From the NCBI GenBank assembly GCA_958296245.1, contig OY282458.1, positions 1,190,238-1,254,237 of the forward strand: DNA of 64,000 nucleotides, written 5' to 3'. Below the pieces are notes generated by a model, which worked only from the letters and a program-made list of their open reading frames with translations, ran no database searches and was not told the DNA's origin. A program made the position numbers and the translations under genes. Source of the DNA: an uncultured Dehalococcoidia bacterium (GTDB lineage Bacteria; Chloroflexota; Dehalococcoidia; Lucifugimonadales; G958296245). Below are positions 34,415 to 64,000 of this stretch, one piece after another (within the stretch, counting starts at the first letter, position 1; the number at the start of each line of letters is the position of its first letter).

Positions 34415-34460
34415 TCTGTTTGGACGTAACACACCTAGTACAAGGAAAGAGAGGTTACAG

Positions 34461-34667: not shown

Positions 34668-34681
34668 ACGACTCAAACCCC

Positions 34682-34742: not shown

Positions 34743-34898
34743 AAGTTCGGCGACCGAACAACCTACCGCCTGGAGGACGTTCCAGGGCTTGAACCTTGAA
34801 ACGTCCTCCCGCAGTGGGGGGCGTAGTGCGCCTTCCGCCGGCGTGCGTTCGGGTTCGGGTGGGCGTCCTCCTAAACACCTCATCAAGGAGGACTCACA

Positions 34899-37506: not shown

Positions 37507-37743
37507 ATGGCGTCTGAAGAAGGATGGGTCGGTATTGCAGACGTGGCTGCCCACCTGAGCGTAGGTAAAGACTCTATATACCGCTGGGTTGACTCGAAAG
37601 ACTTCCCGGCGCACAAGGTAGGGCGGCTCTTACGCTTTCGGCTTTCGGAGGTGGACGATTGGGTGAAGGCAGGAGGTGGCAATAGGCCGAAGACTCATCA
37701 GGGTCGCAGGACGACGCTGGCCCAAAGTCCGAATAACGAGTAG
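37507..37743 (+). CDS. Excisionase/MerR-like HTH DNA-binding protein
   Basis: WVGIADVAAHLSVGKDSIYRWVDSKDFPAHKVGRLLRFRLSEVDDWV is the classic excisionase-family HTH pattern. Confidence 0.8.
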   Translation: MASEEGWVGIADVAAHLSVGKDSIYRWVDSKDFPAHKVGRLLRFRLSEVDDWVKAGGGNRPKTHQGRRTTLAQSPNNE

Positions 37744-37750
37744 AGCATTT

Positions 37751-38764: not shown

Positions 38765-38782
38765 TAGCGGAGACTAGTCAAT

Positions 38783-39466: not shown

Positions 39467-39511
39467 TAAGGATGGTACTACGCGAATACCTAGCCTGTGA
39501 GGTGGGTTGGG

Positions 39512-41736: not shown

Positions 41737-41751
41737 GACAGGCAATCACCG

Positions 41752-48900: not shown

Positions 48901-49366
48901 CCCAACGGTACTCCTTGTGCCTGGTCGTTGCAGTTGTCTCTGGGTCGGCGTCCGGGTCGATGTCGGTGGCTTCCTCCGGATTCAATTCGGGGCTGTCGAC
49001 CATCTCAACCCGTTCATACTCTCCCCAACCGGCACGGACGCTGACGGCGTCGCAGTCGGCACTGACGATAAACGATAGCCCGATGGACGAAGGCGCCAGT
49101 TGCTGCACCCCTCGGGGACCGGCTTCATAGTCTTCGTCGTCTTCGACGGTCGAGGTCGCACTTTCGTCTTCCGAAGGCGAAAGCCTCGTGCCCTGCGGAG
49201 CCAGCATTCCTATTAGGTAGCGGGTTGACGGTGATTGCGCCAGCTCCTCGTCTGGCGCTTCGGGTCCGAGAAGGTCCGTTTTCAGAGCGTTGAGCAACCG
49301 CTCCCTTACGGTTTCTCCCTGCGCCTCGAAGTAGGCGGAAGCTTGCCCGACTGGTTGCGAATTCAT
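45944..49366 (-). CDS. drmA: DISARM DrmA-like SF2 helicase
   Basis: 1140 aa. Motif I is YPTAGGKTEAYLGL and motif II is IIQDELHLI. The C-terminal helicase motif is SNMISVGVDIDRLG...QATSRVGR. Confidence 0.8.
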   Translation of the reverse strand: MNSQPVGQASAYFEAQGETVRERLLNALKTDLLGPEAPDEELAQSPSTRYLIGMLAPQGTRLSPSEDESATSTVEDDEDYEAGPRGVQQLAPSSIGLSFIVSADCDAVSVRAGWGEYERVEMVDSPELNPEEATDIDPDADPETTATTRHKEYRWVRTPFDATILLPLSNRTGHEQISPGASIEWVVESLAVRRVVSVFLTNTRTASQDRRSADEDWMYQPELSVFGNGPIFLSRRLPRSTPDTDPDMASADLIYRRRQEFAVGHGVAVGWNTDSEDETRATRVYTTIVPSREVHAVRGPTNVPPLSMDRLGRAKAPEQVRALLLPLLEAYEEWIDKRKAEVDGISPPDDAVARDHIAAQVESLERMRLGLECLTDPHAFEAFRFANRAMAMQRRTTVRVLHRRRGDTVPTDDQIPTLWRPFQIGFILQSLTALVHPSHPDRDVADLLWYPTAGGKTEAYLGLTAFTFALRRLQVDERYDWSAGTAVLMRYTLRLLTIQQFQRALTLVCASELLRQEDVGKWGEKHFTIGLWVGQSVTPNSYEDSKDALDQLKKERRVYGRSPYQVLYCPWCGSDIAPSNYVTDDELERTLIKCLAVDCPFGAATSELGVPALVVDQEIYRHPPSLVLATVDKFAQMAWNGRIRALFGRVDRHCPRHGYLGEGESHQARHRESVGSPAAVVRDLRAPLAPPDLIIQDELHLIAGPMGSLVGIYESVIDGLSTRASNDGPVRPKIVASTATVRRATTQIRSLFDRDADIFPPLGIDASDSFFAVEETDKPGRLYVGLFGPGKSIKTTLVRTYGALLSRAQFEFDTAVAADPDSEEVAAADAYMTLVGYFNSLRELGGALRLLDDDVPARLRVLQNRGFGPNRLLYEKDRELTSRRGSSEISDTLDALDRTFKMRTAGSYPIDVLLASNMISVGVDIDRLGLMVVSAQPKTSAEYIQATSRVGRRHPGLIVEVYNWVRPRDISHYERFAHYHDTFYRHVEATSVTPFSERARDRALRGVLTSFVRQDVPGMALPAAAASRFDWTLGRVSEIVEFIRDRAYKVTGSQGVDAETKLLLDNLTSEWHGWAQSDEGLIYSSFGTRGRRKESESTEDPAILIKPMEQTEGRGSWPVATSLREVEEEVDVILLQDREE

Positions 49367-52300
49367 GACAACACGTCCTCGTTCCTCGATTGAGGGACAA
49401 CCTCAACGCGCGCGGCGGCCAGTAACCGATACTCCGCCTGAGCCATCTGGGCGGCGGCGAGGTCGCGCAAAGACCGAGCCTTATCTTGTCCAAGCGATTC
49501 GAGCTCCCCCTGGGCACGTTCCAGATTGGCCTCCCATAGTGGGATGGCCTGACGCTGCAATGGTTGGTCCGAAGCCTTGAGCCGCTCCAAGGTGCCCGCA
49601 CACGACCGAATCCGATCCCTGGCCGCTCTGGCACGATTGTCGTACAGACGTTGGATACGATCCCGCTCTATTTCAATGCGGCTCTGCGTCTCCTCACGGA
49701 GATTGGCAATTTGCTCGTCGACTATTGCACGGACTTCCTCGTGGGCGCGTTCATAGGAAGCGTCCAAGGTAGCGAAGTCGACGCATCCCTCGGATTCCTC
49801 TTGTTGGAATTTGCGGGAGTGCTCAAGCAGGTCTGCGCCTAGGACGGGATCGACCAGTCCACGGTCGTCTACGAATGAGGAGTGCATGAATTCCCGAGGT
49901 TTCAGGCCTCCCACCTTGACCAGCCAGTTAAACTGCCAGCCCGGCCGTAATCGGTCCACGGTCCCGTCCCGGAGTTGTCTTATCGCGCTGGCACCCTCGT
50001 GGCGCTCCTCGGTCACACGCCTAACTATCGCATCGATGATCGGATGCCCGAAGCCGAAGTATTCGACAAGTTCGCTATCGACGAACGTCTGAGGATCGAA
50101 GCTAACGCGCCGCTTCTCCTCGCCGTCGACGAGTTCTTTGTGTTCCTCCGTGAACGGCGGATGGAAATGAATGCGCCGTTCGGCCGTGTCCCGACGGGTC
50201 TCGACCCAAGTGTTCACCGATCGCAGAAGCGCCATCATCAGCCGCTCAAAGTCCGCTTGACTAACGGATTGCCTTTCCTGGAGTGCCGTCTGAGCAATCT
50301 CTGCTGCGAAGCTCTTGGTGTCGAGGATAAGGTCCTTTAGCTGGGTCTCGGCTATTCGAGCCTGGCGTACTCGCTCTTCGAGTCTCTGAGCTACGCGCTC
50401 CAACTCCCTATCCCGCTCATCCGCAGTCGCCCGCAGGGCCGTCCTGATATCGGCCTCTGCGTCCCCGAGAATCGGATCAAGGCCTCCTATCGACTCCTCG
50501 AAAAGCCGGATACGCTGCTCGAGGACATCAAGGATTCGCCCCTCGATGGTTCCCCGAACGTGAAAGTTGAAGATGGTCACGGGATGTTCCTGGCCGATTC
50601 GGTCTACGCGCCCGATTCGCTGTTCCACGCGCATCGGGTTCCAAGGCAGATCGTAGTTGACGAGGACGTGCGCAAACTGGAAGTTGCGACCCTCCCCGCC
50701 CGCTTCGGTTGATACCAAGATCTGCGGCCCAGCCCCGACTCGAAATGCTTCGATGGCGTTGTCCTTCTGAAGGGGGTCTAATTGCCCGTGGAACCGGTGG
50801 GCGGACCATCCCTGCGCCGCGCTGAGTTCTACGAGCATCTCCTGCGTCTCGCGGAATTCGGTGAACACGATCACCTTGCCGTCCGCGTCCTCCTCGAATA
50901 GCTCCCGCAGCTTTTCGGCAAACGTCCGTGCCTTCGAGTCGATATCGATTCGTCTCAAAAGTTCGATGACGCGGTCGATCCTGAATATTTCATGGGCCGA
51001 CGCCTCTGGGAGTTCCCTGGTAATCTCGGAAGCCTCCACATCATCGGACAGGCCGTCTTCGGCCGCTTCCGCCGAGAGGGTTCCGGTTATTTTGCCCTGT
51101 AACAGTCGATCACGACGACTGTCCAGGGACTTCAGCAACGCACGAGAGGAACTGGCTGCCAATTTCTGCCAGATAACCATAAGGAAGCCCACCGCGTTCC
51201 TCTGGGTTCGCTCCGCCTCCCTGTATCCGTCGGAGATGATCGAATCCATCTCGGACTGTACCGCCCGTTCATCCTCCGTAATGTGTACGTCCCATCGGAA
51301 CGCCCTTCGAGGTTGGAATCCACCGATGACCGCCCGACGATTCCGTATTAGCACCTCGCTCAGCCTATGCCGTTCCCTAAGCCTCCCAATCAACTCGCCG
51401 ATTTCCAAATCTTCCAGCTCGCTTGATTGTTCGTCGAGGAGAGCTCCCGCCCGCTCGGTCAGTTCGCCTACGGCGCCATGGCGGGTGAGCTCTTCCACGA
51501 GTCTGTTCAGTCCGCCTAGACCCTGCACATGAGAGACGAAGTCGTCTTCTGAGGCGAAGAGAACCGGGTTAAGCATCTCGACCAGGGAGAATAGTTCGTG
51601 GCGGTGGAGTTGCAGAGGCGTTGCCGTCAAGAACAGCACGCCCCGTCTGGCAAACTCGGGACGGGAGGTTAGAGCCGACACTAGCCGATAAAGGTTCGTC
51701 ATAGTGACGCTACTCCCCGACCTTTGTCGACGAGCGTGGTGTGCCTCGTCGACGATGATCAAGTCCCAGTCGACGGCAGCGATCTCCTCACGACGATCAG
51801 AACTCCAAGAGGCCCACGACTGAGAAGTGATGACCGAGTCGTGGTCGGTCCATGGATTCCTGGTCCCCTTTGATTTGAGGTATTGAAGTGTATTCCTGTC
51901 GAAAATCGCGAAAGTTTCGTTGAATTTTGTTTTCAACTCGAACTGCCACTGACGAACCAAGCCGGAGGGCACTAGGATCAATACTCGCCTGGCGAGACCT
52001 CGCGCTCGTAGCTCCTTTACGATCATGGCAGCCTCGATCGTCTTGCCTAGGCCGACCTCGTCACTCAGAAGGAAGCGATACGGATAAGACGAGGTGACCC
52101 TATGCACGACCGACACCTGGTGCGGCTTGAGGTCGACTCGAGCATGCGATAGGGAGACGAGCGAATCGTGTAGGTGTCGCGTCCATAGGTCAGCCGCGAC
52201 CGAGCGCAGATTGAATTGCGCGGCGGTCCCCAGCTGATTGGCTCGAATTCGTTCGATGGGATCATCCAGGGTCGCCGGACGAAGGGCCATCTCTGCTACA

Positions 52301-52581
52301 TTGCTCGTCGTCCCATCGGCGAAAGCAACTTTAACGGTCGGATAGGTTTGTGTGGACACGCTCGCGATAACTACACCTACCCCGCCGTCGCCCCGCATGA
52401 CGTGATCCCCAAGCCCGAAGGGGGCCGGATCAAGTACGCCCGCATCAAGACTGAACATTTGCTCCGCGCCATTGTCAAATGCGACGAAGGCTGTCTGGCC
52501 CTCTATGCGATCGACATAACCGTCCAATCCACCGGCGGCCCAGCGGACCCTTCCTCCAACTCTAATCGTCATTGCACTCAT
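49363..52581 (-). CDS. drmD: DISARM DrmD-like SNF2-family helicase
   Basis: Motif I is LLSDEVGLGKTIEA and motif II is LIIVDEAHHAR. The C-terminal segment is YDLPWNPMRVEQRIGRVDRIGQ. The start has an ATGA overlap with drmA. Confidence 0.8.
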   Translation of the reverse strand: MSAMTIRVGGRVRWAAGGLDGYVDRIEGQTAFVAFDNGAEQMFSLDAGVLDPAPFGLGDHVMRGDGGVGVVIASVSTQTYPTVKVAFADGTTSNVAEMALRPATLDDPIERIRANQLGTAAQFNLRSVAADLWTRHLHDSLVSLSHARVDLKPHQVSVVHRVTSSYPYRFLLSDEVGLGKTIEAAMIVKELRARGLARRVLILVPSGLVRQWQFELKTKFNETFAIFDRNTLQYLKSKGTRNPWTDHDSVITSQSWASWSSDRREEIAAVDWDLIIVDEAHHARRQRSGSSVTMTNLYRLVSALTSRPEFARRGVLFLTATPLQLHRHELFSLVEMLNPVLFASEDDFVSHVQGLGGLNRLVEELTRHGAVGELTERAGALLDEQSSELEDLEIGELIGRLRERHRLSEVLIRNRRAVIGGFQPRRAFRWDVHITEDERAVQSEMDSIISDGYREAERTQRNAVGFLMVIWQKLAASSSRALLKSLDSRRDRLLQGKITGTLSAEAAEDGLSDDVEASEITRELPEASAHEIFRIDRVIELLRRIDIDSKARTFAEKLRELFEEDADGKVIVFTEFRETQEMLVELSAAQGWSAHRFHGQLDPLQKDNAIEAFRVGAGPQILVSTEAGGEGRNFQFAHVLVNYDLPWNPMRVEQRIGRVDRIGQEHPVTIFNFHVRGTIEGRILDVLEQRIRLFEESIGGLDPILGDAEADIRTALRATADERDRELERVAQRLEERVRQARIAETQLKDLILDTKSFAAEIAQTALQERQSVSQADFERLMMALLRSVNTWVETRRDTAERRIHFHPPFTEEHKELVDGEEKRRVSFDPQTFVDSELVEYFGFGHPIIDAIVRRVTEERHEGASAIRQLRDGTVDRLRPGWQFNWLVKVGGLKPREFMHSSFVDDRGLVDPVLGADLLEHSRKFQQEESEGCVDFATLDASYERAHEEVRAIVDEQIANLREETQSRIEIERDRIQRLYDNRARAARDRIRSCAGTLERLKASDQPLQRQAIPLWEANLERAQGELESLGQDKARSLRDLAAAQMAQAEYRLLAAARVEVVPQSRNEDVLS

Positions 52582-52699
52582 ACGGCCTCTCGCCTCCTGC
52601 GCCCAGGGCGCATCCCCGAGCTAGCTTCGACCCTCCGATGACTAGCCCGCCCTTGCCCGCAAACTGATCGCCAAGGCAGCCGGATTCGCCCGGGACGAG

Positions 52700-53431
52700 G
52701 TGACCGAGCCTCTGGTGCAGTTGCAACGACAGCGGCTCCTCGACGATCTGCCCGCCCGTCTGGAGTTCGTCAGCCGAGGCTTTGACTTTCAGGCTGCTGA
52801 GCTCGCGGCGGCCAGGGCGCGCTTCACCGAAAGAAGCCGTTCCGGCGACCCCTCCGCCAAGGGCGAACTCTCTAAGATCAAGAGGAGGCAGCGCAGCTTG
52901 GCGTCGGTGCGAGGCCGTCGTCTCGGTGAACTTCAGTCCGAACCGGGGCATATTAGGCCGGGTGCGTTCGAGTTTCTCGTCCACGCACTCGTGGCGCCCA
53001 ACCAGGACCCCGAGGAGGCCAAGCGTTTCGACGCCCAAGTCGAAGCCATTGCTGTGGAAGTCGCCACCGGATACGAGGAGAGCCTCGGCGCCGCCGTGAA
53101 GGACGTCTCAAAGCCCGAGCTCGCACGGCGCGCGGGGCTGCCGGACTGGCCGGGATTCGATCTCCTAGCCGCCCATCCGGGGGCCGAACGGCGGGCCATA
53201 GAGGTCAAGGGCAGCGCCGGTGCGGGAAACGTCGAGATAAGCGATAACGAATGGGCCAAGGCCTGCAATCTTCGCAACGACTACTGGCTGTACGTCGTCT
53301 TCGACTGCGCCACGCCGCACCCGCGCCTCGTGCGTGTGCGCGATCCGTTTGCCAAGCTGCTTGCGAAAAGCCGCGAATCGTTTGCCTACACGATCAGCCC
53401 TAGGGCTCTGCGCGAGGCGGCAGAGCCCTAG
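52700..53431 (+). CDS. DUF3883 (NOV C-terminal-like) domain protein, probably the 3' remnant of a larger helicase gene
   Basis: GFDLLAAHPGAERRAIEVKGSAGAGNVEISDNEWAKACNLRNDYWLYVVFDC matches DUF3883. Protein-like sequence continues in frame upstream of the GTG back to a TAG at 52643-52645. Confidence 0.65.
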   Translation: MTEPLVQLQRQRLLDDLPARLEFVSRGFDFQAAELAAARARFTERSRSGDPSAKGELSKIKRRQRSLASVRGRRLGELQSEPGHIRPGAFEFLVHALVAPNQDPEEAKRFDAQVEAIAVEVATGYEESLGAAVKDVSKPELARRAGLPDWPGFDLLAAHPGAERRAIEVKGSAGAGNVEISDNEWAKACNLRNDYWLYVVFDCATPHPRLVRVRDPFAKLLAKSRESFAYTISPRALREAAEP

Positions 53432-53448: not shown

Positions 53449-54480
53449 GTGGTTGACGTAAACCTAAAGATACCTGCAATTGAAAAGCTGCTGGACTACG
53501 CCGCCAGTGGGATAGGAGCAACCGCCGGACCAATGCTGGCCAATTGGAGAGCATCGAGAGAGGGAAAGGCAAGAATCACCTCCGCCCTCGCGGATGCGGA
53601 AGTGCGCCGCATTGAAGTGGAATCAGACGTCGGCGCTTTGCGGATTATTGCCGCCGCGCAGGCCGAGGCTCGGCGGTCCATCGACACGACGATTGAGTCG
53701 GGCCGTGGAATGGTGGAAATCACACGTGGAGACATTACACAGTCGATTGAGTTTCAAGGTCGGAAACGCTTGACTAACGTCAGGTCCGTCGTAGAGGAAG
53801 CAGCCGATGAGCTTGATGACAAGGAAGTAGCTGACCACGAACCTGACCCGGACTGGACTGCCCGCTTCTTCGATTGTGTCCAAGATGTCTCGTCGCAGGA
53901 TATGCAGAAGATATGGGCAAAGCTGCTTTCCGGTGAAGTGGAAAGCCCTGGGCGGACTTCCCTCCGCACGTTGGACACTCTCAGGAACATGACGAAAAAG
54001 GATGCAATCCTGTTCAAGAACATCTGCGACTTCGTTATTGGAGGCGACTTCGTATTCTACGACTGGAAGTACGTAAAGCAGTACAGCCCTCTTGAATACG
54101 ACAACCTGCTTCATATTCAGGACTGTGGTTTGATAAACGTTGGCCCCAATTTGGTAGAGGAAGTCGCGTGGGGTGACAAAAAGAAAGCTCTGGTTACATA
54201 TCAGGACGGCGTTCTAATGATTAGTGGTAATCCAGACGCTGATGACGAGTTGGAGATCCCAGCGATCGTGCTTACGACTGCGGGAAAGGAGCTGTTCCGG
54301 ATTGCTCAATGCACGTTGCATATGAGATACCTGCAATCTTTCTCAAGATTCCTCCAGCTGAAGAGCTGCGAATTATCCTATCTAGAAGGTGTGCGGCCAT
54401 TGCCTGACGGAACACTACGTTACGCACGCCGTATTCCCATTGAGCCACATCCTGAGCAAGTGGAAGATACCACACCATGA
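53449..54480 (+). CDS. DUF2806-domain protein
   Basis: DPDWTARFFDCVQDVSSQDMQKIWAKLLSGEVESPGRTSLRTLDTLRNMTKKDAILF matches the DUF2806 pattern. The stop overlaps the drmMI start (ATGA). Confidence 0.7.
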   Translation: MVDVNLKIPAIEKLLDYAASGIGATAGPMLANWRASREGKARITSALADAEVRRIEVESDVGALRIIAAAQAEARRSIDTTIESGRGMVEITRGDITQSIEFQGRKRLTNVRSVVEEAADELDDKEVADHEPDPDWTARFFDCVQDVSSQDMQKIWAKLLSGEVESPGRTSLRTLDTLRNMTKKDAILFKNICDFVIGGDFVFYDWKYVKQYSPLEYDNLLHIQDCGLINVGPNLVEEVAWGDKKKALVTYQDGVLMISGNPDADDELEIPAIVLTTAGKELFRIAQCTLHMRYLQSFSRFLQLKSCELSYLEGVRPLPDGTLRYARRIPIEPHPEQVEDTTP

Positions 54481-57400
54481 CCACGGCCAACACCAAACGC
54501 CTGATTGAAGCCGCGTTCCCGCTGAAGGAGGTGTCGCTGGACTCTGTGCATGAGAAGAACGTGCGGCATGGGCATATCTCGACACTGCACATCTGGCCGG
54601 CGCGGAGGCCGCTGGCCGCTTCGCGGGCTGCGCTGATCGCCACGCTGCTGCCCGATCCGGGCAGTCCCGACAAGCGAAATGCGATCCTGGAGCGCATGGC
54701 GGGCCACGTGATGAAGAAGACCGAGCGCAAGCGCGTGAACGGGCGCACGGTCGAGAAGGTGAAGGAGGAGACGGTAGGCGGCATCCTCCACTGGGGGCGC
54801 GAGAACGGCCCCGACCTCGACTGGTTCCGCAAGGCGATACGCAAGGCCTACGGCGGACGCGCCCCCAGGGTGCTGGACCCCTTCGCGGGCGGCGGCGCCA
54901 TCCCCTTGGAGGCCATGCGGCTGGGCTGCGAAGTGACCGCCATGGACATCAACCCCGTCGCCTGGTTCATCCTCAAGTGCACCCTGGAGTATCCCCAGAA
55001 GCTGGCCGGGCAGACTTGCCCTCTGCCCGAGTTCACACTGAAGGACCGCGACTTCATGAAGGCGTTCCTGAAGGCAAAGGGCTTCAAGGGGGCCGGCCTG
55101 CGGACGTTCCTCGAACGGCTGGGCCACGGCAACGGCGGCGACGTCCAACTCGACCTCGTGCGTCCCGACGATCCGAGCCTGGAGGCGGACCTCGCCTGGC
55201 ACGTTCGCGCCTGGGGGCGGTGGGTCCTGGCCAGGGCGCGCAGGGAGCTGGCGTCCCACTACCCCACCTACGCCGAATGGGGAGCGGCTAGTGATCAGGG
55301 GATAGTGGATGGCGGGGAAGAAACACGCCCCTGGCTGCTGGAGCCGGACGCCGACGGCAAGACCGATGCCGGGCCGTTGAACACGCGCTTCGATTCGGCC
55401 TATCTCAATGACCCGCGCAACCCGCGATGGGTCGCCAAGCCCACGGTGGCCTATCTCTGGGCGCGCGCCGTTGCCTGCAAACAGTGCCGGGCCACGCTGC
55501 CCCTGCTCAAGACTCGCTGGCTATGCAAGAAGGACAACAAGCGGGTGCTGCTGACTATGGAGCCGAACTCGGACCGGACCGGCGTCGTCTTCGGCGTGCA
55601 GCCCGACGCGCCCCGCAACGGCAGCAACGCTGCTCAGCGGCGGGAGCACGACAGGCGCATCGGGGCCGGCACCATGTCCCGAACCGGCGCAACCTGCCCC
55701 TGCTGCGACACCATCATGACGATGCAGGACATCCGGCTCGAAGGCCGCGCCGGACGGCTGGGCGCGGTGATGACCGCCGTCGTGGTGGATGGAGTGAAGG
55801 GCAAGGAGTACCGCCTGCCCACTGACCATGAGCGCGAGGCTGCCGAAGTGAGCGAGGAGCGGCTTCAGGCTCTCTATGCGGACATTCCATTCGGGTTGCC
55901 GGAGGAACCTTTGCCCAGCAAGGAGGCTCTTGGGTTTCGTGTCCCACTCTACGGGTTCGACACGTGGCGCAAGCTGTTCACGAACCGGCAGCTGTTGGCG
56001 CTGGGTGAGTTTGTTCGTTCACTCCGCGAAATGCCCGAGCAACTTGCTGATTACCCCAAGGAGTGGCAGGAAGCTACCGTTGCTATGTGCCTACCCATCA
56101 TCAGCCGTATGGCTGACCGGGGAAGTACGTTGGCAACATGGACCAACGATCCCGAAAAAATCAGGAGTACGTTCGCCCGTTTCGCATTACCCATCACGTG
56201 GGACTTCTCCGAGTTTGCGCCACTTTCAGACACCACCGGAGGGTTCGTTCAATCTGTCGATTGGGTATTCAAGGTCTGCGAGCATCTGCAAAGGAGCGTG
56301 GACTCGGCCAAGAGCGGGGAGTGCATCTGTGAATCCGCAATCTCCAGCCCGGTCGGGAACGTCGATCTCATCCTAACTGACCCCCCTTACTATGACGCGA
56401 TACCATATTCTGATCTGATGGATTTCTTCTATGTCTGGCTCCGGCGTTCGATTCCAGGGTTGTCTCCCAAAGTCGATTCCGTGTTCTCTCGCTCCCTTGG
56501 GCCAAAATGGGACCATGATTCAGGTGACGGCGAACTCATAGACGACGCCAGTAGGTTTGGCGGTGACCAGGAGCGATCCAAGCAGAATTACGAAGAGGGC
56601 ATGGCCCGCTCGTTTCAGTCGTGTCACGCTGCGCTGAGTCCTGATGGTCGGCTCGTCGTCGTGTTTGCCAACAAGCAGCCCGATGCGTGGGAGACGCTGG
56701 TAGCCGCCCTAATCCGGGCCGGCTTCGTTGTGGACGGTTCTTGGCCTGTACAGACAGAGATGGGCAACCGCAACCGAGCCATCGCATCCGCCGCCCTGTC
56801 GTCATCGGTCTGGATCGTCTGCAAGAAGCGGCCCGCATCGCGCCCCGGCTGGGACAACAGCGTCCTACAGGAGATGCGCGAGAACATCACCCAGCAGCTG
56901 CGCGACTTCTGGGACGCGGGGATTCGCGGGCCGGACTTCGTCTGGGCGGCAACCGGCCCGGCCCTGGAGGCCTTCAGCAAGTATCCGGCGGTCAAGAAGG
57001 CGAACGCCCCAGACCAGCTTATGACCGTATCGGAGTTCCTGCGCGAGGTGCGGCGGATGGTGGTGGACTTCGTGGTCGGTCGCGTCCTGACCCATGGCGA
57101 TGGGCACGAAGCCGTGAGCGGACTCGACGACGTGACCACATACTACCTGCTGCACCGCCACGACTTCGGCATGGACGACGCGCCCGTCGGCGGCTGCATC
57201 CTCTACGCCCTGTCGTGCAACCTCTCCGACTCGGCTTTGGTAAACCAGCACGACCTTCTGGCCCAATTGGGCAAAGGAAGCGCCGGCGACACCGGAGAGA
57301 ACGACGCTGCTGAGGAAGACGAAGAATCGGAGAGCGGGGGCGGCGCAAGGGTGAGGCTAAAGGCGTGGAACCGGCGGCAGGGCCGCAACCTCGGCCTCGC

Positions 57401-57662
57401 GGGACCGGGCGACCGTCCCGCCCCACTGATCGACCAGGCGCACAGGCTGATGCAGCTCTGGCGCGCCGGGGACCAGGTCAAGGTGGACGACTACCTTGAC
57501 GCCCGCGGCCTCCAGCGCAACGCCCTGTTCGGCCAGATACTCCAGGCGCTCATCGAGCTGTCCGACGCCGGCTCCGACGAGCGCTCGATCCTCGAAGCCC
57601 TGAGCAACCACGTGGCCGCTCGGGGTAATATAGGCGCACCACGCCAGCAGGCCATGCTATGA
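54477..57662 (+). CDS. drmMI: DUF1156-type adenine DNA methyltransferase (DISARM DrmMI-like)
   Basis: The DUF1156 N-terminus is KRLIEAAFPLKEVSLDSVHEKNVRHGHISTLHIWPARRPLAASRA. An FAGGGAIPLEA motif is present. The Zn-ribbon is CKQC...CPCC. The catalytic motif is LTDPPYYDAIPYSDL. Confidence 0.85.
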   Translation: MTTANTKRLIEAAFPLKEVSLDSVHEKNVRHGHISTLHIWPARRPLAASRAALIATLLPDPGSPDKRNAILERMAGHVMKKTERKRVNGRTVEKVKEETVGGILHWGRENGPDLDWFRKAIRKAYGGRAPRVLDPFAGGGAIPLEAMRLGCEVTAMDINPVAWFILKCTLEYPQKLAGQTCPLPEFTLKDRDFMKAFLKAKGFKGAGLRTFLERLGHGNGGDVQLDLVRPDDPSLEADLAWHVRAWGRWVLARARRELASHYPTYAEWGAASDQGIVDGGEETRPWLLEPDADGKTDAGPLNTRFDSAYLNDPRNPRWVAKPTVAYLWARAVACKQCRATLPLLKTRWLCKKDNKRVLLTMEPNSDRTGVVFGVQPDAPRNGSNAAQRREHDRRIGAGTMSRTGATCPCCDTIMTMQDIRLEGRAGRLGAVMTAVVVDGVKGKEYRLPTDHEREAAEVSEERLQALYADIPFGLPEEPLPSKEALGFRVPLYGFDTWRKLFTNRQLLALGEFVRSLREMPEQLADYPKEWQEATVAMCLPIISRMADRGSTLATWTNDPEKIRSTFARFALPITWDFSEFAPLSDTTGGFVQSVDWVFKVCEHLQRSVDSAKSGECICESAISSPVGNVDLILTDPPYYDAIPYSDLMDFFYVWLRRSIPGLSPKVDSVFSRSLGPKWDHDSGDGELIDDASRFGGDQERSKQNYEEGMARSFQSCHAALSPDGRLVVVFANKQPDAWETLVAALIRAGFVVDGSWPVQTEMGNRNRAIASAALSSSVWIVCKKRPASRPGWDNSVLQEMRENITQQLRDFWDAGIRGPDFVWAATGPALEAFSKYPAVKKANAPDQLMTVSEFLREVRRMVVDFVVGRVLTHGDGHEAVSGLDDVTTYYLLHRHDFGMDDAPVGGCILYALSCNLSDSALVNQHDLLAQLGKGSAGDTGENDAAEEDEESESGGGARVRLKAWNRRQGRNLGLAGPGDRPAPLIDQAHRLMQLWRAGDQVKVDDYLDARGLQRNALFGQILQALIELSDAGSDERSILEALSNHVAARGNIGAPRQQAML

Positions 57663-60322
57663 CTACAGGCGACCGTCATCCCCCATCGGGCGCGCGATTC
57701 TTCAAGTGTGCGTTGCAGGTCAACCCGCCCCACTACGCCGAGACCTTCCGCGGGCAGGACGGCGAAAGCGATCCGCGAGCATACGCTGAGGCCATCGTCG
57801 AGAAGGCCGCAGAGATTGGCGTCGAAGCCCTTGCCATCACTGACCACAACGACGTAAGCGGGGTGTCTGCGTTCCGCGATGCTGCGTCCGATTACAATAT
57901 CACGGTGCTCCCCGGCTTCGAGCTCACCTCATCGGAAGGCATCCACGTGCTGTGCTTATACAATCCGGACACTGACACTGAGCAGCTTGACAGATTCCTG
58001 GGCGAGTTCGGAATCCGCACAACCGGTTCTTCCTCAGAACTGTCGGACGAGTCCTTTGAGGATATCCTCCTGAAGGTCAGAGAGCAGGGCGGCATCGCGA
58101 TAGCCGCTCACGTGACGAATGACAAAGGATTGCTCAAGACTCTCACAGGACAGGCGCGGATCAACGCATGGCGGAGTGAAGGCCTCCTTGCGATCCAGAT
58201 ACCGGGGCCTATCGGAGATCTGCCTTTCGACCAGCGGCAGATAGTAGAAAACAAGGACTCCAATTACCGCCGTGCCCACGCGGCGGCCGCGATTAACGCG
58301 AAGGACGTAGCCAAGCCTGAGGACCTGAGCGATCCATCGGCCACCTGCTGGATCAAGATGTCCGAGATCAGTGTCGAGGGTCTGCGGCAAGCGTTTCTGG
58401 ACCCGGTCTCTCGAATCCGGCTTAACAGCGATCCCGTTCCCGAAGATCATGCGGAGCTGATTGCGCTGACGTGGGAGGGTGGATTTCTGGACGGCGCGGC
58501 TATCCGCTTCAACCCGAATCTGAACGTTCTCGTCGGGGGGCGCGGTACGGGGAAGTCCACCGTCGTCGAGAGCTTGCGGTACGTGCTGGGCCTAGACCCT
58601 GTTGGGGAAGACGCCCGCAAGTCCCACGAGGGGATCGTGAGTAACGTATTGCGGAGCGGGACGAAGATCACGCTCGTAGCGCGCTCCCACCATCCGGCGG
58701 AGCGAGAATACCGGATCGAGCGGACCGTTCCGAACCCGTCTCTGGTTCGCGATGAGAACGGACAGCTGTCAAATCTGCTTCCCAAAGACGTTCTTCCCCG
58801 GGTCGAAATCTACGGCCAACACGAGGTCTCGGAGATCACCAGGAGTCCTCAGAAGCTCACCTCGCTCCTCGATCGCTTCGTTCAACGTGACCCGTCGCTG
58901 GACAAGCGCAAGGCCAGTGTGCGCAGGGGCCTGCAACAGACGCGTGAGTCGATCATTGGCGTTCAATCCGAGCTTCAGCAGATTGATGAACGCTTGGCTG
59001 CGCTGCCGGGACTTGAGGAGACGCTCAGGCGTTTCAAGGAGGCCGGACTCGAAGACCGCTTGCGCGAGCAGAGCCTGCTCGTTCGGGAAGAGCAGGCGCT
59101 CGACTCGATCCCCGGGCGTGTACGGACGTTCCGGGAGTGCCTGGAGACGCTGCGGCAAGAGTTGCCCATCGACCTGACGTTCTTGTCGCCGAAGGCCCTG
59201 GAAGGACTGCCGGGCAGGGAGATTCTCGCGCAGGCAAACGGAGCGCTGGGCCAATTGAGTCAGGACTTAGGGCAGATAGCGCAACGCTTGGCGGAAGCCC
59301 TAGCGCGGGCTGACGAAGGCATAGAGGATGTTCGCAGCCGTTGGGCAGAACGCAAGGCCGAGGTGGAGGCTGAGTACCAGAAGATCTTACGCGAGTTGCA
59401 GAAATCGGCTGTGGACGGGGAGGAGTTCATCCGACTGAGGCGCGAAATCGAAAACCTGCGCCCGTTGCGTGAGCGCCGTAGTGCGCTCGAGCGGCTGGAG
59501 AAGGAGCATACAGGAAGGAGACGCGCACTTCTGGGTGAGTGGGAGGACATCAAGGCGTCGGAATTCAGGCTCCTCGACCATGCGGCACAGACCGTGAGCT
59601 TTAGGCTTCGCGACCGGGGCAAGGTTGAAGTGGCTGCCGCGGGCAACAGGGAGCCGCTCTTCAAGACGATCAGAGAGGAGATTGTCGGACGCCTCTACGA
59701 GGCAATAAACGCTCTCAGGCAAGCGCCGGACCTATCGTTGCCAGAATTCGTAGAGCGATGCAGGGCAGGCGCGGACGAGATCCAGAAGGCTTATGATGCA
59801 GTCCCTCCGGCCCAGGCGGAACGCCTCTCCAAGGCATCAGATGATACGCTGATGAAAATCGAGGAGTTGGAATTGCCCGCGACGATAACACTACATCTGA
59901 ACACGGCGCCCGCCGGCGCTCAGCACTCGTGGCAGGCGCTGGATGACCTTTCGACAGGTCAAAAGGCGACTGCCGTGTTGCTGCTTCTGCTGTTGGAGTC
60001 CGACGCCCCGCTCATCGTCGATCAGCCGGAAGACGACCTCGACAATCGATTTATCACCGAGGGTGTGGTCCCGAAGATGAGAGAGGAAAAACGTCGCCGG
60101 CAGTTCCTGTTCTCGACCCATAACGCCAACATCCCGGTACTCGGTGACGCCGAGCTCATAATCGGCCTGGACGCTTCGGGCGCAGCGGGAGATATGAAGG
60201 CGGTCATTCAACCTGAGCGCATGGGTTCTATCGACACGCTGCCGGTGCGGGAGTTGGTTGAGGAGATACTCGAAGGCGGCAAGAATGCGTTCGAGACGCG
60301 GCGGCTGAAGTACGGATTCTGA
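57659..60322 (+). CDS. PHP-domain plus SMC/ABC-like coiled-coil ATPase
   Basis: The PHP segment is LAITDHNDVSG...GFELTSSEGIHVLC. The Walker A is VGGRGTGKST. A long coiled coil follows. The signature is LSTGQKATAVLLLLL and the Walker B is LIVDQPEDDLD. The start has an ATGA overlap with drmMI. Confidence 0.8.
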   Translation: MTTGDRHPPSGARFFKCALQVNPPHYAETFRGQDGESDPRAYAEAIVEKAAEIGVEALAITDHNDVSGVSAFRDAASDYNITVLPGFELTSSEGIHVLCLYNPDTDTEQLDRFLGEFGIRTTGSSSELSDESFEDILLKVREQGGIAIAAHVTNDKGLLKTLTGQARINAWRSEGLLAIQIPGPIGDLPFDQRQIVENKDSNYRRAHAAAAINAKDVAKPEDLSDPSATCWIKMSEISVEGLRQAFLDPVSRIRLNSDPVPEDHAELIALTWEGGFLDGAAIRFNPNLNVLVGGRGTGKSTVVESLRYVLGLDPVGEDARKSHEGIVSNVLRSGTKITLVARSHHPAEREYRIERTVPNPSLVRDENGQLSNLLPKDVLPRVEIYGQHEVSEITRSPQKLTSLLDRFVQRDPSLDKRKASVRRGLQQTRESIIGVQSELQQIDERLAALPGLEETLRRFKEAGLEDRLREQSLLVREEQALDSIPGRVRTFRECLETLRQELPIDLTFLSPKALEGLPGREILAQANGALGQLSQDLGQIAQRLAEALARADEGIEDVRSRWAERKAEVEAEYQKILRELQKSAVDGEEFIRLRREIENLRPLRERRSALERLEKEHTGRRRALLGEWEDIKASEFRLLDHAAQTVSFRLRDRGKVEVAAAGNREPLFKTIREEIVGRLYEAINALRQAPDLSLPEFVERCRAGADEIQKAYDAVPPAQAERLSKASDDTLMKIEELELPATITLHLNTAPAGAQHSWQALDDLSTGQKATAVLLLLLLESDAPLIVDQPEDDLDNRFITEGVVPKMREEKRRRQFLFSTHNANIPVLGDAELIIGLDASGAAGDMKAVIQPERMGSIDTLPVRELVEEILEGGKNAFETRRLKYGF

Positions 60323-60331
60323 GGCGCGAGG

Positions 60332-61576
60332 ATGAACCGTACCGAGCTGCTGGAGATCATCAGCAACGACGAGAACTCAGGCGTCGAGTTCAAGCGAGAC
60401 GACGAACATCCGGAAAGCCTTGCCACGGAGATTGCCGCCATGCTGAACATGGAAGGTGGGTACATTCTCCTGGGTGTCGAATACGACGGATCGGTTTCCG
60501 GTCTCAGTCGAGAGCGAACGGAGGCCGAAGAGTGGACAATGCATGTGGCGCGCGATCGTGTCCTGCCCTCAGTGATCCCCTATTGGGAGACCCTGGAATG
60601 GGAGCCGGGCATCATCGTTGGGGTGATCTCGCTCCCCGCAGACGCCCCCGACAAACCGTACAAGGCGAAGCGGGGGAAGTCTTGGGTTACTCGGATACGC
60701 GCCGGAACCACTACGCGCGACGCGACGCGCGAGGAGGAGGAGCGCCTGTATCAGCAGTCGGGAAGGCTCCAATATGGCCTCAAGCCCGTGCCGGGCGCAG
60801 CTCTCGACACACTTGACCGGAGACGTTTGCGCGACTACTTTGTCCGCGTTTTGGAAGGGGACGTTCCGACCGACGACGATGACGACCAATGGCAACAGCT
60901 GCTCTGTAACCTGGACATGGCGACCACGCCGGCGGGTCGAATTGCGGCAACCATCGACGGGATGCTGCTCTTTGGGGAGAATCCGAAGCGATTTCTTCCG
61001 CAGTCGGGCGTCCGGGCTGTCTGCTACCCCGGGGAAGAACCGGATTACGCTACACGTGCGGACGAATACTTGAAGGGACCCCTGGTCCCACTCGGCACTA
61101 GGGACGGTACGATAATCGAACCTGGCATCGTAGATATGGCGTGGGATTTCGTGCGGCGCAACACCGCTCCATCAGCCCGCTTGGAGGGGGCGCGGCGAAT
61201 CGACCGCTGGGATTATCCCGAAGAAGCAGTGCGCGAGGCGATGGCCAACGCCTTGGTACATCGAGACTACAGCATCGCGGGCACTGACATCATGCTGGCA
61301 ATCTTCTCGGACCGCCTTGAGATTCTTAGCCCAGGACGGCTCCCCAACACGGTTACGGTAGATGGGATGAAATTGGGGATGCGTTACGCTCGAAATCAGA
61401 CGCTGGTCAACGTCATGCGTGACTATGGATACGTCGACGCGCGCGGTATGGGAGTGCGGAATAAGATCATTCCGGCAATGAAGACGCACAATGGCACCGA
61501 GCCGGATCTCGTCGAGGAAGAAAGCCGTTTCATCGTTCGCCTTTGGAAGGATGCAAAAACAATTCATGAGCCATAG
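60332..61576 (+). CDS. AlbA_2 (Schlafen-like) DNA-binding domain plus HATPase_c_4 protein
   Basis: The N-terminus is ELLEIISNDENSGVEFKRD...GGYILLGVEYDGSVSGL. The C-terminus is EAMANALVHRDYSIAGTDIMLAIFSDRLEILSPGRLP. Confidence 0.8.
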   Translation: MNRTELLEIISNDENSGVEFKRDDEHPESLATEIAAMLNMEGGYILLGVEYDGSVSGLSRERTEAEEWTMHVARDRVLPSVIPYWETLEWEPGIIVGVISLPADAPDKPYKAKRGKSWVTRIRAGTTTRDATREEEERLYQQSGRLQYGLKPVPGAALDTLDRRRLRDYFVRVLEGDVPTDDDDDQWQQLLCNLDMATTPAGRIAATIDGMLLFGENPKRFLPQSGVRAVCYPGEEPDYATRADEYLKGPLVPLGTRDGTIIEPGIVDMAWDFVRRNTAPSARLEGARRIDRWDYPEEAVREAMANALVHRDYSIAGTDIMLAIFSDRLEILSPGRLPNTVTVDGMKLGMRYARNQTLVNVMRDYGYVDARGMGVRNKIIPAMKTHNGTEPDLVEEESRFIVRLWKDAKTIHEP

Positions 61577-61632
61577 AGATGGCGCAAGCGTGTGCCCTGA
61601 AGCAATGCTTGAAACCCAATAATGAGGACGAC

Positions 61633-64000
61633 ATGACACAACGACGCGGTTGGAAACCCTGGCACGGGGTTGTGCAGATGCGTGACGACCTGAAGAGCGG
61701 CGAGCTCCCGCTGGCCGTGTTCGCCGCTGACCTGTACGACGTGGTGATGCAGAAGGGGCAGCGGAGAGTTTACGAGGACCCCGCCGAGTTTTTCGCCCTC
61801 ACCTATCCGACGTACAAGCTGCGCGAGCTTGTCAGGGACATCGCCCTGCGCTTGGACGGTAGGAGCGACAAGGCGTATCGAAAGCTGTCGGTCAACTACG
61901 GCGGCGGCAAGACCCACACTCTCATCACGTTGAGACACTTGGTGCATGACCCTGATGGCCTGCCCGACCTGCCTGCCGTCCGGGAGTTCGAGGCGCACGT
62001 CGGGTTCAGGACGCCGAGGGCGCGGGTCGCCGCCCTGTGCTTCGACAAGATAGACCTGGAGAAGGGCGTCGAGACTCCAGGGCCGGACGGCACGGTCAGG
62101 ATGCTCAGACATCCGTGGAGCATTCTCGCCTATCAGCTGGCCGGGGCCGACGGTCTCAGACTCATCCATGCTGAGGGCAGGGACGAAGAGCGGGAGACTC
62201 CACCGGCGGAACCTCTCGTAGTGGACCTGCTGTCGAGGCCACAAGAAGATGGACTCTCGACCTTGGTGCTCTTGGACGAGGCGCTGATGTACATCCGCGC
62301 GCAGGTAGAGACGAACCCAGCAACGCGCGGACGCCTGATCGCCTTCTTCCAGTACCTCACCCAGGCGGTCGTAAAAGTGGACCGGTGCGCTATGGTAGTC
62401 TCGCTTCTCGCCTCCGATCCCAGGAAGCACGACGATCTCGGGACGGAGCTTCTCAGGGACGTGTCTGACGTGTTTGGCCGCCAGATGGAAGAGGATGCCA
62501 GCCCCGTCAGCAAGGAGGACGTAGCGGAAGTTCTGCGGCGGCGCTTCTTCAACCCGGAGTCCATTCGAGATGCGGGTGTCTTTCGGCCGCACGTCACTTC
62601 CACGGTTGGCAGCATCGCCTCGCTCGACGAGCAGACGAAGAAGGAGCGCCCATCTGCCGAGGAGCGCTACCTGAGCAGCTATCCCTTCCACCCCGACCTC
62701 ACCGAGGTCTTCTATACCCGGTGGACCCAACTGGACGGGTTCCAGCGCACCCGCGGCATCCTCCGAACATTTGCCATAGCCCTTCGGGACGCCGAGAAGT
62801 GGGACACAAGCCCGTTGGTGGGGCCAAACGTCTTCCTGAATAAGCCGGGCGAGAACGACTTGGCGGAGGCGGCAAGCGAGCTGGCATCCTTCGCCAGCGT
62901 GGACACAGACACGGGCAAACACCAGGAATGGAGGCCAATCATCGAAGGAGAGTTGGCCAAGGCGCGCACCATACAGTCGGAAGCGACCGGCCTCAACCAC
63001 CGTGAGATGGAGCAGGCAGTTATCACGGTCTTCTTGAGTTCTCAACCCATAGGCCAGAAGGCTCTGACCCAGGAATTGATGGTGATGCTCGGCGCGACGA
63101 ATCCGGACAGGATAGAGTTGGAGAAGGCGTTGCGCCGCTGGACGGAGGTGTCCTGGTTCCTAGACGAGGTGGAAGTCGGTACGAGCGAAATGGGCCGGGG
63201 TGGTACACGTCAGATGCCGAAGGCCTGGCGGCTGGGCAATCGTCCGAACCTGCGCCAGATGCACGACGATGCCTGCGCCAATCGTGTCCTGCCCGCGCTG
63301 GTGGAATCGCAGATAACTGACCTCATCGAGAAGGAACGGTCTCTGACATCAGGAGCGGCGCCGGCCGGCGCCAGGGTGCACAACCTGCCGGAGAGACCCC
63401 GCGACATCGCGGACGACGGCGAGTTCCACTACGCTGTTCTGGGACCGAAGGCCGTCTCCGATTCCGGCAAGCCCAGCACAGAGGCAAGACGGTTCATTGA
63501 CGAGACGACGGCCCCAGACCGCCCCCGCGTTCATCGTAACTCAGTCGTGCTTGCCGTTCCCTCCAGAGACGGCCTCGAAGCGGCGCGGGTCCGAGTTCGC
63601 GAGCATCTCGGCTGGATGGAGGTACAGGAGCAGCTAAAGGACCAGCCGATAGATCCCATCCGCGGACAGATGCTCTCCAGCGAGACGGAGTCGGCAAGAA
63701 GACGCATCCCCGATGTCATCAGGCAAGCCTATTCCATCGTCGTGACGGTCAACGAAGACAACGACGTCCATGCCTTCAAGATCGCGGTGACGGGAGATCC
63801 TCTTTTCACAACGATCAAGGCCGATAGGCGCGCCCGTATCCAGGAAACTGCAATCAGCTCGGAAGCGATGATCCCGGGCGGCCCATATGACCTCTGGCGC
63901 GAGGGAGAGAAGTCCCGACGGGTCAAGGACCTGGTCGGCGCCTTCGCGCAGTTCCCCAAGCTACCCAAGATGCTGCGCCGCAAGGAGATCGTGGATACCA
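61633..64000 (+). CDS. DUF499 (BrxC/PglY-like) ATPase, 3' end outside the window
   Basis: This gene is not in the ORF track because no stop falls within the window. MTQRRGWKPWHGVVQMRDDLKSGELPLAVFAADLYDV...SVNYGGGKTHTLITL is the P-loop region. ...FYTRWTQLDGFQRTRGILRTFA also fits. The frame was checked open at 62701, 63421 and 63961. Confidence 0.85.
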   Translation, partial: MTQRRGWKPWHGVVQMRDDLKSGELPLAVFAADLYDVVMQKGQRRVYEDPAEFFALTYPTYKLRELVRDIALRLDGRSDKAYRKLSVNYGGGKTHTLITLRHLVHDPDGLPDLPAVREFEAHVGFRTPRARVAALCFDKIDLEKGVETPGPDGTVRMLRHPWSILAYQLAGADGLRLIHAEGRDEERETPPAEPLVVDLLSRPQEDGLSTLVLLDEALMYIRAQVETNPATRGRLIAFFQYLTQAVVKVDRCAMVVSLLASDPRKHDDLGTELLRDVSDVFGRQMEEDASPVSKEDVAEVLRRRFFNPESIRDAGVFRPHVTSTVGSIASLDEQTKKERPSAEERYLSSYPFHPDLTEVFYTRWTQLDGFQRTRGILRTFAIALRDAEKWDTSPLVGPNVFLNKPGENDLAEAASELASFASVDTDTGKHQEWRPIIEGELAKARTIQSEATGLNHREMEQAVITVFLSSQPIGQKALTQELMVMLGATNPDRIELEKALRRWTEVSWFLDEVEVGTSEMGRGGTRQMPKAWRLGNRPNLRQMHDDACANRVLPALVESQITDLIEKERSLTSGAAPAGARVHNLPERPRDIADDGEFHYAVLGPKAVSDSGKPSTEARRFIDETTAPDRPRVHRNSVVLAVPSRDGLEAARVRVREHLGWMEVQEQLKDQPIDPIRGQMLSSETESARRRIPDVIRQAYSIVVTVNEDNDVHAFKIAVTGDPLFTTIKADRRARIQETAISSEAMIPGGPYDLWREGEKSRRVKDLVGAFAQFPKLPKMLRRKEIVDT

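Follow-up and report, generated by a model that had tools for sequence, protein, structure and literature searches.

The genes at the right-hand end of this DNA raise the question of whether a DUF1156 methylase, a PHP-SMC-like ATPase, an AlbA_2/HATPase_c_4 protein, and a DUF499 ATPase, encoded one after another on the plus strand, form a new defence system or are assembled from known ones. The stretch analysed, referred to below as the window, comprises 64,000 nucleotides of contig OY282458.1 (positions 1,190,238 to 1,254,237) from an uncultured Dehalococcoidia bacterium. The initial annotation took the methylase for the DISARM class-1 methylase DrmMI, regarded the locus as a combination of DISARM-type and BREX-type components, and suggested either a distinct methylation-linked system sharing its methylase with DISARM or an accessory sensor/effector layer. 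We found that the locus is a composite of parts that already have names (Hma, TrlFG, and a DISARM-like operon), rather than a distinct new system, and its novelty is modest. The reading that we favour, with a probability of about 0.7, is a composite defence island in which an Hma (helicase–methylase–ATPase) operon carries the two-gene TrlFG cassette, a putative latent Schlafen RNase back-up, beside a DISARM-like operon.

Open reading frames (ORFs) in the 31.7–64 kb part of the window were scanned for defence families, and PADLOC profile matches were counted at E ≤ 0.001. The best matches of the methylase and the DUF499 protein are HmaB and HmaC, respectively. No model named DrmMI, BrxC or PglY is among the matches of these two proteins, and the DUF499 protein was recognised by the HmaC and DUF499 models only. 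The Pfam search revealed DUF1156 and weak N6_N4_Mtase and D12 matches in the methylase, with no match to pfam13659. In the class-1 DISARM preprint (10.1101/2021.12.28.474362), the family that defines DrmMI is pfam13659 and not DUF1156; the label DrmMI is not supported for this methylase. Homologues of the methylase with 81–83% identity are located in canonical HmaA...HmaB...HmaC loci (L107–L109; here and below, L-numbers are labels of relatives’ loci). In these canonical relatives, HmaA (SNF2 fused to NOV_C, 1114–1211 aa) is followed by variable genes, HmaB, variable genes again, and HmaC (1099–1103 aa). The DUF499 fragment of the window is 82% identical to the 1099-aa HmaC of L107 across all 789 residues; therefore, approximately 310 hmaC codons should lie beyond the window, the sequence past 64 kb being deduced from the relatives’ loci. 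The methylase and the DUF499 ATPase are orthologues of HmaB and HmaC (82–83% identity). In the closest Hma relatives, nothing is conserved downstream of hmaC, and no PglZ is found there.

The Hma system was named by Payne et al. in 2021 (PMC8565338) and re-described by Rakesh and Krishnan as a ‘Type-1 DUF499-centred BREX-related system’ (PMC12839542); in Halomonas, protection against phage T4 by HmaA has been demonstrated (PMC11232893). In the literature, the DUF1156 N6-adenine methylase HmaB marks self DNA, the DUF499 ATPase HmaC is a sensor or scaffold, and HmaA, in which an SNF2 helicase is joined to a PD-(D/E)XK nickase, serves as the effector. Inserted genes are present in about two thirds of hma operons, and Ppl is mentioned by name among them (PMC11232893). 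The canonical Hma loci analysed here likewise carry other cassettes in both slots, including OLD-TOPRIM, UvrD + STAND, and AAA_21 pairs. Hma operons possess two variable slots (hmaA–hmaB and hmaB–hmaC) for exchangeable defence cassettes, the second of which is occupied by trlF-trlG in the window. The window resembles canonical Hma loci in its gene order and in the foreign defence cassettes between the core genes. It differs from them in having a DUF2806 gene and trlFG in its slots and in retaining only the last ~260 codons of hmaA; the end of hmaC is outside the window.

As for BREX, the STAND/ORC AAA+ core of DUF499 ATPases is BrxC-like, and the methylase is similar to those of Type-3 BREX (PMC12839542); however, no PglZ, BrxA, BrxB or BrxL was found among the scanned ORFs, and the DUF499 protein lacks a PADLOC match to BrxC/PglY. 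The MADS system was also considered and rejected, the matches to mad2 (4.6e-10) and mad3 (9.1e-14) being weak and partial. In annotation, DUF1156 together with DUF499 should be read as Hma, which is BREX-related, and not as DISARM plus BREX. The only link of the locus with DISARM is the adjacency of a drmDABC operon on the other strand.

An SNF2 helicase fused to a NOV_C nuclease is not encoded in the window, and just the last ~260 codons of HmaA are left there. The hmaA ORF as called starts with GTG at 52700, and homology to HmaA can be followed back to 52649, where it is immediately preceded by an in-frame stop codon; the tblastn homology at 52649–53425 corresponds to HmaA residues 856–1114. 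The remnant covers positions 982–1162 of 1176 in the PADLOC HmaA profile, and the NOV_C ORF shows 70% identity, without gaps, to residues 873–1114 (the last 242) of the intact 1114-aa HmaA of L107. Thus, ~855 codons are missing from the 5' end of hmaA, and its PD-(D/E)XK (NOV_C) part remains. The D...EVK...E nuclease motif of the remnant is intact, its divergence does not exceed that between two intact orthologues, and no signal of relaxed selection was found in this identity comparison. This can be explained either by a recent truncation or by selection acting on a stand-alone nuclease. In another genome (L002, 9294–10004), a NOV_C-only ORF (236 aa) with transposase genes just upstream overlaps the trlF start by 4 nt; it looks like an independent hmaA truncation.

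The plus-strand genes from ~52.65 kb to the end of the window most probably constitute one Hma-system operon with the order truncated hmaA, DUF2806 gene, hmaB, trlF, trlG, and hmaC (Table 1). The ORF coordinates, the co-directional layout, and the spacing given initially for the last four ORFs (1061 aa, 887 aa, 414 aa, and 789 codons without a stop) were confirmed by direct reading of the sequence. The ATGA at 57659–57662 is common to the hmaB stop and the trlF start. The trlF–trlG spacer is 9 nt long (GGCGCGAGG) and holds a GAGG Shine–Dalgarno-like motif, and in the 56-nt trlG–hmaC spacer, GAGGA precedes the ATG at 61633. Pfam matches likewise supported the AlbA_2/HATPase_c_4 protein and the DUF499 ATPase open at the window end. 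The extent of the operon, initially set at 54477–64000, holds as far as these genes are concerned; its start, however, lies further upstream, at the 5'-truncated hmaA, which is separated by a 17-nt gap from the DUF2806 gene. The latter shares its last 4 nt with the start of hmaB, and no plus-strand terminator-like site was detected between the operon genes. The DUF2806 protein scores 101.5 bits against NCBIfam TIGR03899, under the 155.65-bit cut-off; no PADLOC profile matched it, and none of the 82 TrlF loci described below contains its gene. This gene fills the hmaA–hmaB slot, is translationally coupled to hmaB, and may be an uncharacterised defence-associated gene.

The 887-aa protein encoded in the second slot exceeds the 350-bit cut-off of the NCBIfam ‘TrlF family AAA-like ATPase’ model (NF045780), with residues 11–886 aligned. 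Its composition of PHP and SMC/ABC ATPase domains with three quoted motifs was initially described correctly, and Pfam recognises PHP, AAA_23, SMC_N, and AAA_21 in it. The motifs GRGTGKST (Walker A), LSTGQK (signature), and DQPEDDLD (Walker B) are all present and are invariant or nearly so among 31–82 homologues; the H-loop is invariant as well. Q-V-N is found where the first PHP metal motif H-x-H is expected, and this replacement is conserved in homologues. In the AlphaFold2 model (mean predicted local distance difference test score, pLDDT, 68.6), the PHP domain and the coiled-coil helices (~412–650) are confident. A Foldseek search with this model indicated that the PHP fold, which is followed by long antiparallel helices, is closest to RNase AM and Endonuclease Q; weak matches to MukB, condensin, and JetC were also obtained. 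No zinc-hook CxxC motif of the Rad50/RloC type was seen in the coiled coil when the sequence was read. A sequence search against solved structures returned just distant domain matches for TrlF, TrlG, and HmaC. The TrlF family is large, with 1,659 clusters at 50% identity matching at E ≤ 1e-30; in the viral contig collection, no close TrlF relative was found. Memberships of TrlF in Lamassu, Gabija, and Septu were rejected, since the matches are at the P-loop level only.

TrlF was also compared with Ppl, a single-gene PHP–ATPase defence system (Gao et al. 2020). TrlF is similar to Ppl in length and in its PHP + ABC ATPase architecture, and the PADLOC Ppl profile matches it at 1e-43. Nevertheless, membership in Ppl was rejected: TrlF reaches 206.5 bits against the NCBIfam model Ppl_antiphage (NF042955), whose equivalog-level cut-off is 1000 bits, and the gene is not solitary. 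The sole canonical Ppl locus inspected (E. coli plasmid NZ_CP083889) is solitary, with no Schlafen partner, whereas the TrlF of the window is paired.

The partner, TrlG, combines SLFN_AlbA_2 and HATPase_c_4 domains. Its Ex4ExK motif (E14, E19, K21) is conserved in 79 homologues. This is the Schlafen catalytic motif; fusions of Schlafen and kinase domains are the commonest bacterial architecture, and the Schlafen nuclease family includes demonstrated anti-phage members (10.1101/2025.07.24.666596). In at least 1017 taxa, proteins combining Schlafen, a minimal kinase, and a winged helix-turn-helix (wHTH) are associated with BREX and BREX-related loci (PMC12839542). A paralogous Schlafen + kinase-like + wHTH protein (~467 aa) was noted near TrlFG in L011, L016, L017, L023, L048, and L082. 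An association of TrlG with prokaryotic Argonautes was considered and rejected: the PADLOC matches at ~1e-12 reflect a common Schlafen-type domain, and no Argonaute is encoded among the scanned ORFs.

The conservation of the pair was analysed in 82 TrlF loci, of which 80 were obtained by a one-genome-per-species scan with the 887-aa protein and two by exact look-ups; neighbouring genes were counted within 10 kb. The 80 scanned loci are those most similar to the TrlF of the window, belong to many phyla, and show 60–72% identity to it. A Schlafen/HATPase_c_4 gene was found in 81 of the 82 loci, across more than ten phylum-level groups, and in 80 of them trlG is the next gene after trlF, the commonest gap being 9 nt, which is also the gap in the window. 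Two loci deviate: in L011, the Schlafen gene is situated ~2 kb upstream of trlF, and L075 has TrlF without TrlG. The trlF and trlG genes are one conserved two-gene unit, and a PHP-ATPase gene followed by an AlbA_2/HATPase_c_4 gene should be annotated as such (TrlFG). An E. coli pAA plasmid (L117) carries a distant TrlF-family gene without an annotated Schlafen partner.

The genomic contexts of the pair are diverse. Near TrlFG, 23 loci have a DUF1156 methylase, 20 a DUF499 gene, 19 an SNF2 helicase, and 13 NOV_C, and most of the 82 loci contain none of the Hma genes of the window. DrmA, DrmB, and DrmC were detected in none of the 82. Two gene orders recur, hmaA > trlF > trlG > hmaB > hmaC and hmaB > trlF > trlG > hmaC, the latter being that of the window; the arrangement of methylase, PHP-ATPase, AlbA_2, and DUF499 genes was also found in L047, L048, L051, L065, and L074, so that the synteny of these genes is not confined to one genome. 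In eight of 12 embedded loci, the stop codon of the preceding hma gene overlaps the start of trlF or lies right next to it. In the TrlF tree, copies embedded in Hma loci are interspersed with free ones, and the closest relatives of HmaB are without TrlFG; therefore, the cassette appears to be mobile in and out of Hma loci. HsdM or HsdR adjoins the pair in at least seven of the 82 loci. In one plasmid type I restriction–modification (R-M) operon, the order is hsdM > hsdS > trlF > trlG > hsdR; a second plasmid R-M layout is hsdR > trlF > trlG > hsdS > AAA > hsdM, and a plasmid BREX-1 operon reads pglX > trlF > trlG > pglZ > brxL. TrlFG is also found as a stand-alone pair on plasmids. Conjugative plasmids are among the carriers of the pair. 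The identity of 60–72% across many phyla, the conjugative plasmids, and the three classes of restriction-type operon make the TrlFG cassette a useful lead.

On this basis, trlF-trlG may be regarded as a self-contained, horizontally mobile module placed in the hmaB–hmaC slot. TrlF (PHP + SMC-like ABC ATPase) would act as a sensor or restrainer, and TrlG (Schlafen RNase + kinase-like ATPase) would be a latent toxin which, once released, would cut tRNA or rRNA and arrest growth. The module would fire when the first layer of defence fails or is inhibited, as PrrC in EcoprrI and PARIS do. Since the pair lies inside a restriction-type operon and is co-translated with it, TrlFG is probably a second layer, and a guard or back-up role is favoured by analogy, because this placement mirrors that of prrC inside EcoprrI. 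Of the two suggestions made initially, the accessory sensor/effector layer is the one to be preferred: the locus is a methylation-linked defence operon, transcribed as one unit, to which an effector layer has been added.

One alternative is that TrlFG is a mere passenger, the Hma slots being recombination hotspots and the cassette being independent of Hma, with no guard relationship. Such independence would agree with the majority of TrlFG loci lacking the Hma genes, with the stand-alone plasmid copies, and with the many unrelated cassettes that occupy the same Hma slots both in the loci examined here and in published ones (PMC11232893). It agrees less well with the fact that TrlFG is found repeatedly inside, and not just beside, three classes of methylation-based restriction operon, that its stop and start codons often overlap with those of the neighbouring gene, and that this layout is known for PrrC. 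We consider the passenger role rather unlikely.

The comparison with PrrC and RloC deserves separate consideration. PrrC is kept silent by an R-M enzyme and becomes active in response to an anti-restriction factor of a phage, and in RloC, a tRNA nuclease is coupled with a Rad50-like ATPase (PMC2610378, PMC3458546). In both, an ABC ATPase governs a tRNA-directed nuclease, as proposed for TrlFG. Moreover, prrC sits between hsd genes in EcoprrI, as trlF and trlG do in the hsdM > hsdS > trlF > trlG > hsdR operon. Unlike PrrC and RloC, TrlFG consists of two proteins, contains a Schlafen-type and not a PrrC/HEPN-type anticodon nuclease, has an extra PHP domain, and has no zinc-hook CxxC. A similar relationship exists with PARIS, which comprises the ABC ATPase AriA and the TOPRIM nuclease AriB and is also a two-gene module of ATPase and tRNA nuclease found in R-M/BREX hotspots. 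AriA matches the C-terminus of TrlF weakly (PADLOC 8.8e-8); however, the effector fold is different, and TrlF possesses the PHP domain and a long coiled coil. By analogy with these systems, TrlFG is probably a PrrC/PARIS-like back-up defence, in which case a Schlafen-based member would be added to the guards of restriction systems.

The PHP-SMC module had been considered initially to have no characterised role in DISARM or BREX; apart from passing the TrlF cut-off and being related to Ppl, the protein makes up, together with the AlbA_2 protein, the trlF-trlG pair that has been studied genetically in Photorhabdus (PMC7554251). The temperature restriction locus of Photorhabdus laumondii is trlR-trlF-trlG, where trlF is annotated as a ‘histidinol phosphatase’ gene and trlG, which encodes AlbA_2 and HATPase_c_4 domains, has been wrongly annotated as recG. 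A rise in temperature induces the operon, which arrests growth, and point or nonsense mutations in trlG permit growth at 36 °C by escaping this arrest; none of the 30 selected mutants mapped to trlF (PMC7554251). The window resembles this locus in that a large PHP/‘histidinol phosphatase’ ATPase gene is followed by an AlbA_2 + HATPase_c_4 gene, the two loci being matched by description. The differences are that the window is without a small trlR-like regulator and that its trlF is coupled to hmaB. No small upstream ORF resembling TrlR is conserved across the 82 loci, the clusters obtained being shadow ORFs of hmaA and hmaB. The model in which TrlG would be the effector fits the Photorhabdus genetics, because the escape mutations hit trlG alone.

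The same genetics could be taken to mean that TrlFG is a stress- or temperature-responsive growth regulator and not an immune module, given the induction by temperature up-shift, the growth arrest, and the fact that a phage phenotype was not reported (PMC7554251). We consider this very unlikely: the distribution of TrlFG is patchy across many phyla at 60–72% identity, copies reside on conjugative plasmids and are embedded in R-M, BREX, and Hma operons, and there are demonstrated anti-phage members in the Schlafen nuclease family. More generally, TrlFG might be a widespread abortive-infection guard, in which a PHP/SMC-like ATPase holds a Schlafen RNase latent, and which embeds in type I R-M, BREX-1, and Hma operons and fires on their inhibition or on foreign DNA; on this view, an immune toxin that activates itself would underlie the Photorhabdus phenotype. 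This broader proposal is tentative, and we would give it somewhat less than even odds. If true, it would provide a molecular explanation for the puzzling growth-temperature phenotype of Photorhabdus.

Several observations weigh against a guard or back-up role of TrlFG within a working Hma operon. The sole recorded phenotype of TrlFG is temperature-dependent growth arrest, and no experiment ties the pair to phage defence. The kinase-like clade to which TrlG belongs is not among the Schlafens shown to be protective (10.1101/2025.07.24.666596). As the first metal motif of the PHP domain is Q-V-N, the PHP nuclease activity of TrlF is uncertain, and the ATPase head of TrlF is poorly predicted in the AlphaFold2 model. 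The Hma linkage in ~28% of the sampled loci may be biased, because the 80 scanned loci are those most similar to the TrlF of the window. Finally, the window ends inside hmaC, and an Hma copy with a truncated hmaA may be non-functional or dependent on DrmD. We nevertheless regard TrlFG as a candidate guard of restriction systems and as the worthwhile residue of the locus. We did not find TrlFG catalogued as a paired defence module in the searched literature: no further paper was found under the names TrlG or ‘temperature restriction locus’, none was found by a search combining HATPase_c_4, PHP, and defence, and ‘PHP’ is used in no relevant sense in the text of PMC12839542. For the rest, the locus proved to be largely classified already, because the Hma and TrlF names exist, Ppl insertions into hma operons have been published (PMC11232893), and the linkage of Schlafen–kinase–wHTH proteins with BREX has been described (PMC12839542).

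The DISARM-like neighbour lies outside the region annotated initially. Its minus-strand operon encodes an SNF2 helicase, DrmA, DrmB, and DrmC, and thus includes the DISARM core trio. Among PADLOC profiles, the SNF2 gene matches BrxHI best (4.3e-105), followed by DrmD (2.2e-80) and HmaA (3e-69), and against NCBIfam DISARM_DrmD it scores 303.8 bits, under the 610-bit cut-off. In SNF2 relatives with 44–56% identity and enough flanking sequence (L083–L087, L091), drmA is the next gene, and drmB and drmC are present where the contig extends. Two further SNF2 relatives (L088 and L095, 41–48% identity) adjoin DUF499 and/or DUF1156-type genes; since these are BREX-related and the relatives at 52–56% identity are in DISARM-type operons, the SNF2 clade is common to both systems. 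The SNF2 protein of the window shows just 29% identity to the helicase part of the L107 HmaA, so the hmaA helicase has been lost and the DISARM-like operon stands in its place. Given that the helicase part of hmaA is missing and drmDABC is found there on the opposite strand, the locus is better understood as a composite defence island than as one new system. It records the rebuilding of a defence island, in which a DISARM-like operon replaced the helicase half of hmaA.

Table 1. Positions of the Hma operon genes and of the adjoining DISARM-like operon in the window.
Feature	Coordinates	Strand	Basis
5'-truncated hmaA	52649/52700..53431	+	NOV_C 2.5e-14; PADLOC HmaA profile
DUF2806/TIGR03899-family gene	53449..54480	+	Pfam DUF2806 3.6e-35
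hmaB, N6-adenine DNA methyltransferase, N-terminal DUF1156	54477..57662	+	PADLOC HmaB 7.6e-118; DUF1156 5.8e-19
trlF, PHP + SMC/Rad50-like ABC ATPase with coiled-coil insert	57659..60322	+	NCBIfam TrlF_fam_ATP 533.7 bits
trlG, SLFN_AlbA_2 + HATPase_c_4, predicted effector	60332..61576	+	Pfam 7.7e-13 and 1e-20
hmaC, DUF499 AAA+ ATPase, open at window end	61633..64000	+	PADLOC HmaC 4.4e-70; DUF499 7.9e-17
Junction of DISARM-like operon and truncated hmaA	52582..52648	.	67 nt, drmD start codon to first hmaA-homologous codon
drmD-like SNF2 helicase	49363..52581	-	First gene of divergent drmD-drmA-drmB-drmC operon
drmA	45944..49366	-	PADLOC DrmA 4e-282
drmB, DUF1998/MrfA zinc-binding domain	44176..45942	-	PADLOC DrmB 7e-87; Pfam MZB
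drmC, PLD-family nuclease	43410..44192	-	PADLOC DrmC 1.8e-47; Pfam PLDc_2

The resemblance to class-1 DISARM is limited to DrmA, DrmB, DrmC, and the DrmD-like helicase next door; the methylase of the window is of the HmaB type (DUF1156) and not a pfam13659 DrmMI, whereas the methylase used by the closest drmDABC relatives is of the C5 type. All five SNF2 relatives with 52–56% identity (L083–L087) have a C5 cytosine methylase gene alongside; none was detected in the whole 64-kb window, and drmDABC is without a methylase of its own. The sole methylase gene nearby is hmaB, which is divergent and located 1.9 kb from the drmD start. This could point to a functional DISARM–Hma hybrid, a reading close to the main idea of the initial annotation, in which DrmD would replace the lost HmaA helicase, HmaB would supply the self-mark for DrmABC, and HmaC, the NOV_C nuclease, and TrlFG would belong to one system. 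The retention of the catalytic residues in the nuclease remnant without excess divergence is compatible with such a hybrid, and approximately 21% of Type-1 BREX-related systems lack the helicase–nuclease fusion and have separate nucleases nearby (PMC12839542). However, this is a single instance: DrmA, DrmB, and DrmC are near none of the 82 TrlF loci or the closest Hma loci, and no DISARM-type relative has a DUF1156 methylase or a DUF499 gene. In addition, the junction resembles a breakpoint within hmaA at codon 856, beside an in-frame stop. The class-1 DISARM of Serratia tolerates the absence of its methylases (10.1101/2021.12.28.474362), so drmDABC does not need hmaB. Compared with two neighbouring systems in a composite island, a functional hybrid seems quite unlikely.

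Other features of the window were also noted. The G+C content drops at ~38 kb, from ~0.65–0.70 to 0.55–0.62, and stays low to the window end, which likely marks an acquired defence island. Within it, a CBASS-type pair is encoded at 41020–42597 (+), comprising an oligonucleotide cyclase (PADLOC 2.8e-87, SMODS) and a Cap17-like ATP-nucleosidase effector (1.1e-35). The N-terminus of the cyclase may be missing or mis-called, because the ORF covers profile positions 75–301 of 310. The first genes past the G+C drop (37676–40165, +) are one for a PLD-like protein that matches, with its C-terminus, the last part of a type IIG enzyme model, and an ORF with weak HNH similarity; both may be fragments. 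At 7873–9742 (+), tRNA-Ala(TGC) follows a complete 16S rRNA gene, and the rRNA genes appear to be unlinked, since no 23S rRNA was detected in the window. What looks like a portion of a mobile element borders the island at 30563–37263 (+); it comprises an SSB-like ORF and genes for a DUF6094 methyltransferase (weak mad2 match) and a helicase-like protein (Helicase_C, ResIII; weak ZorD/DpdE matches).

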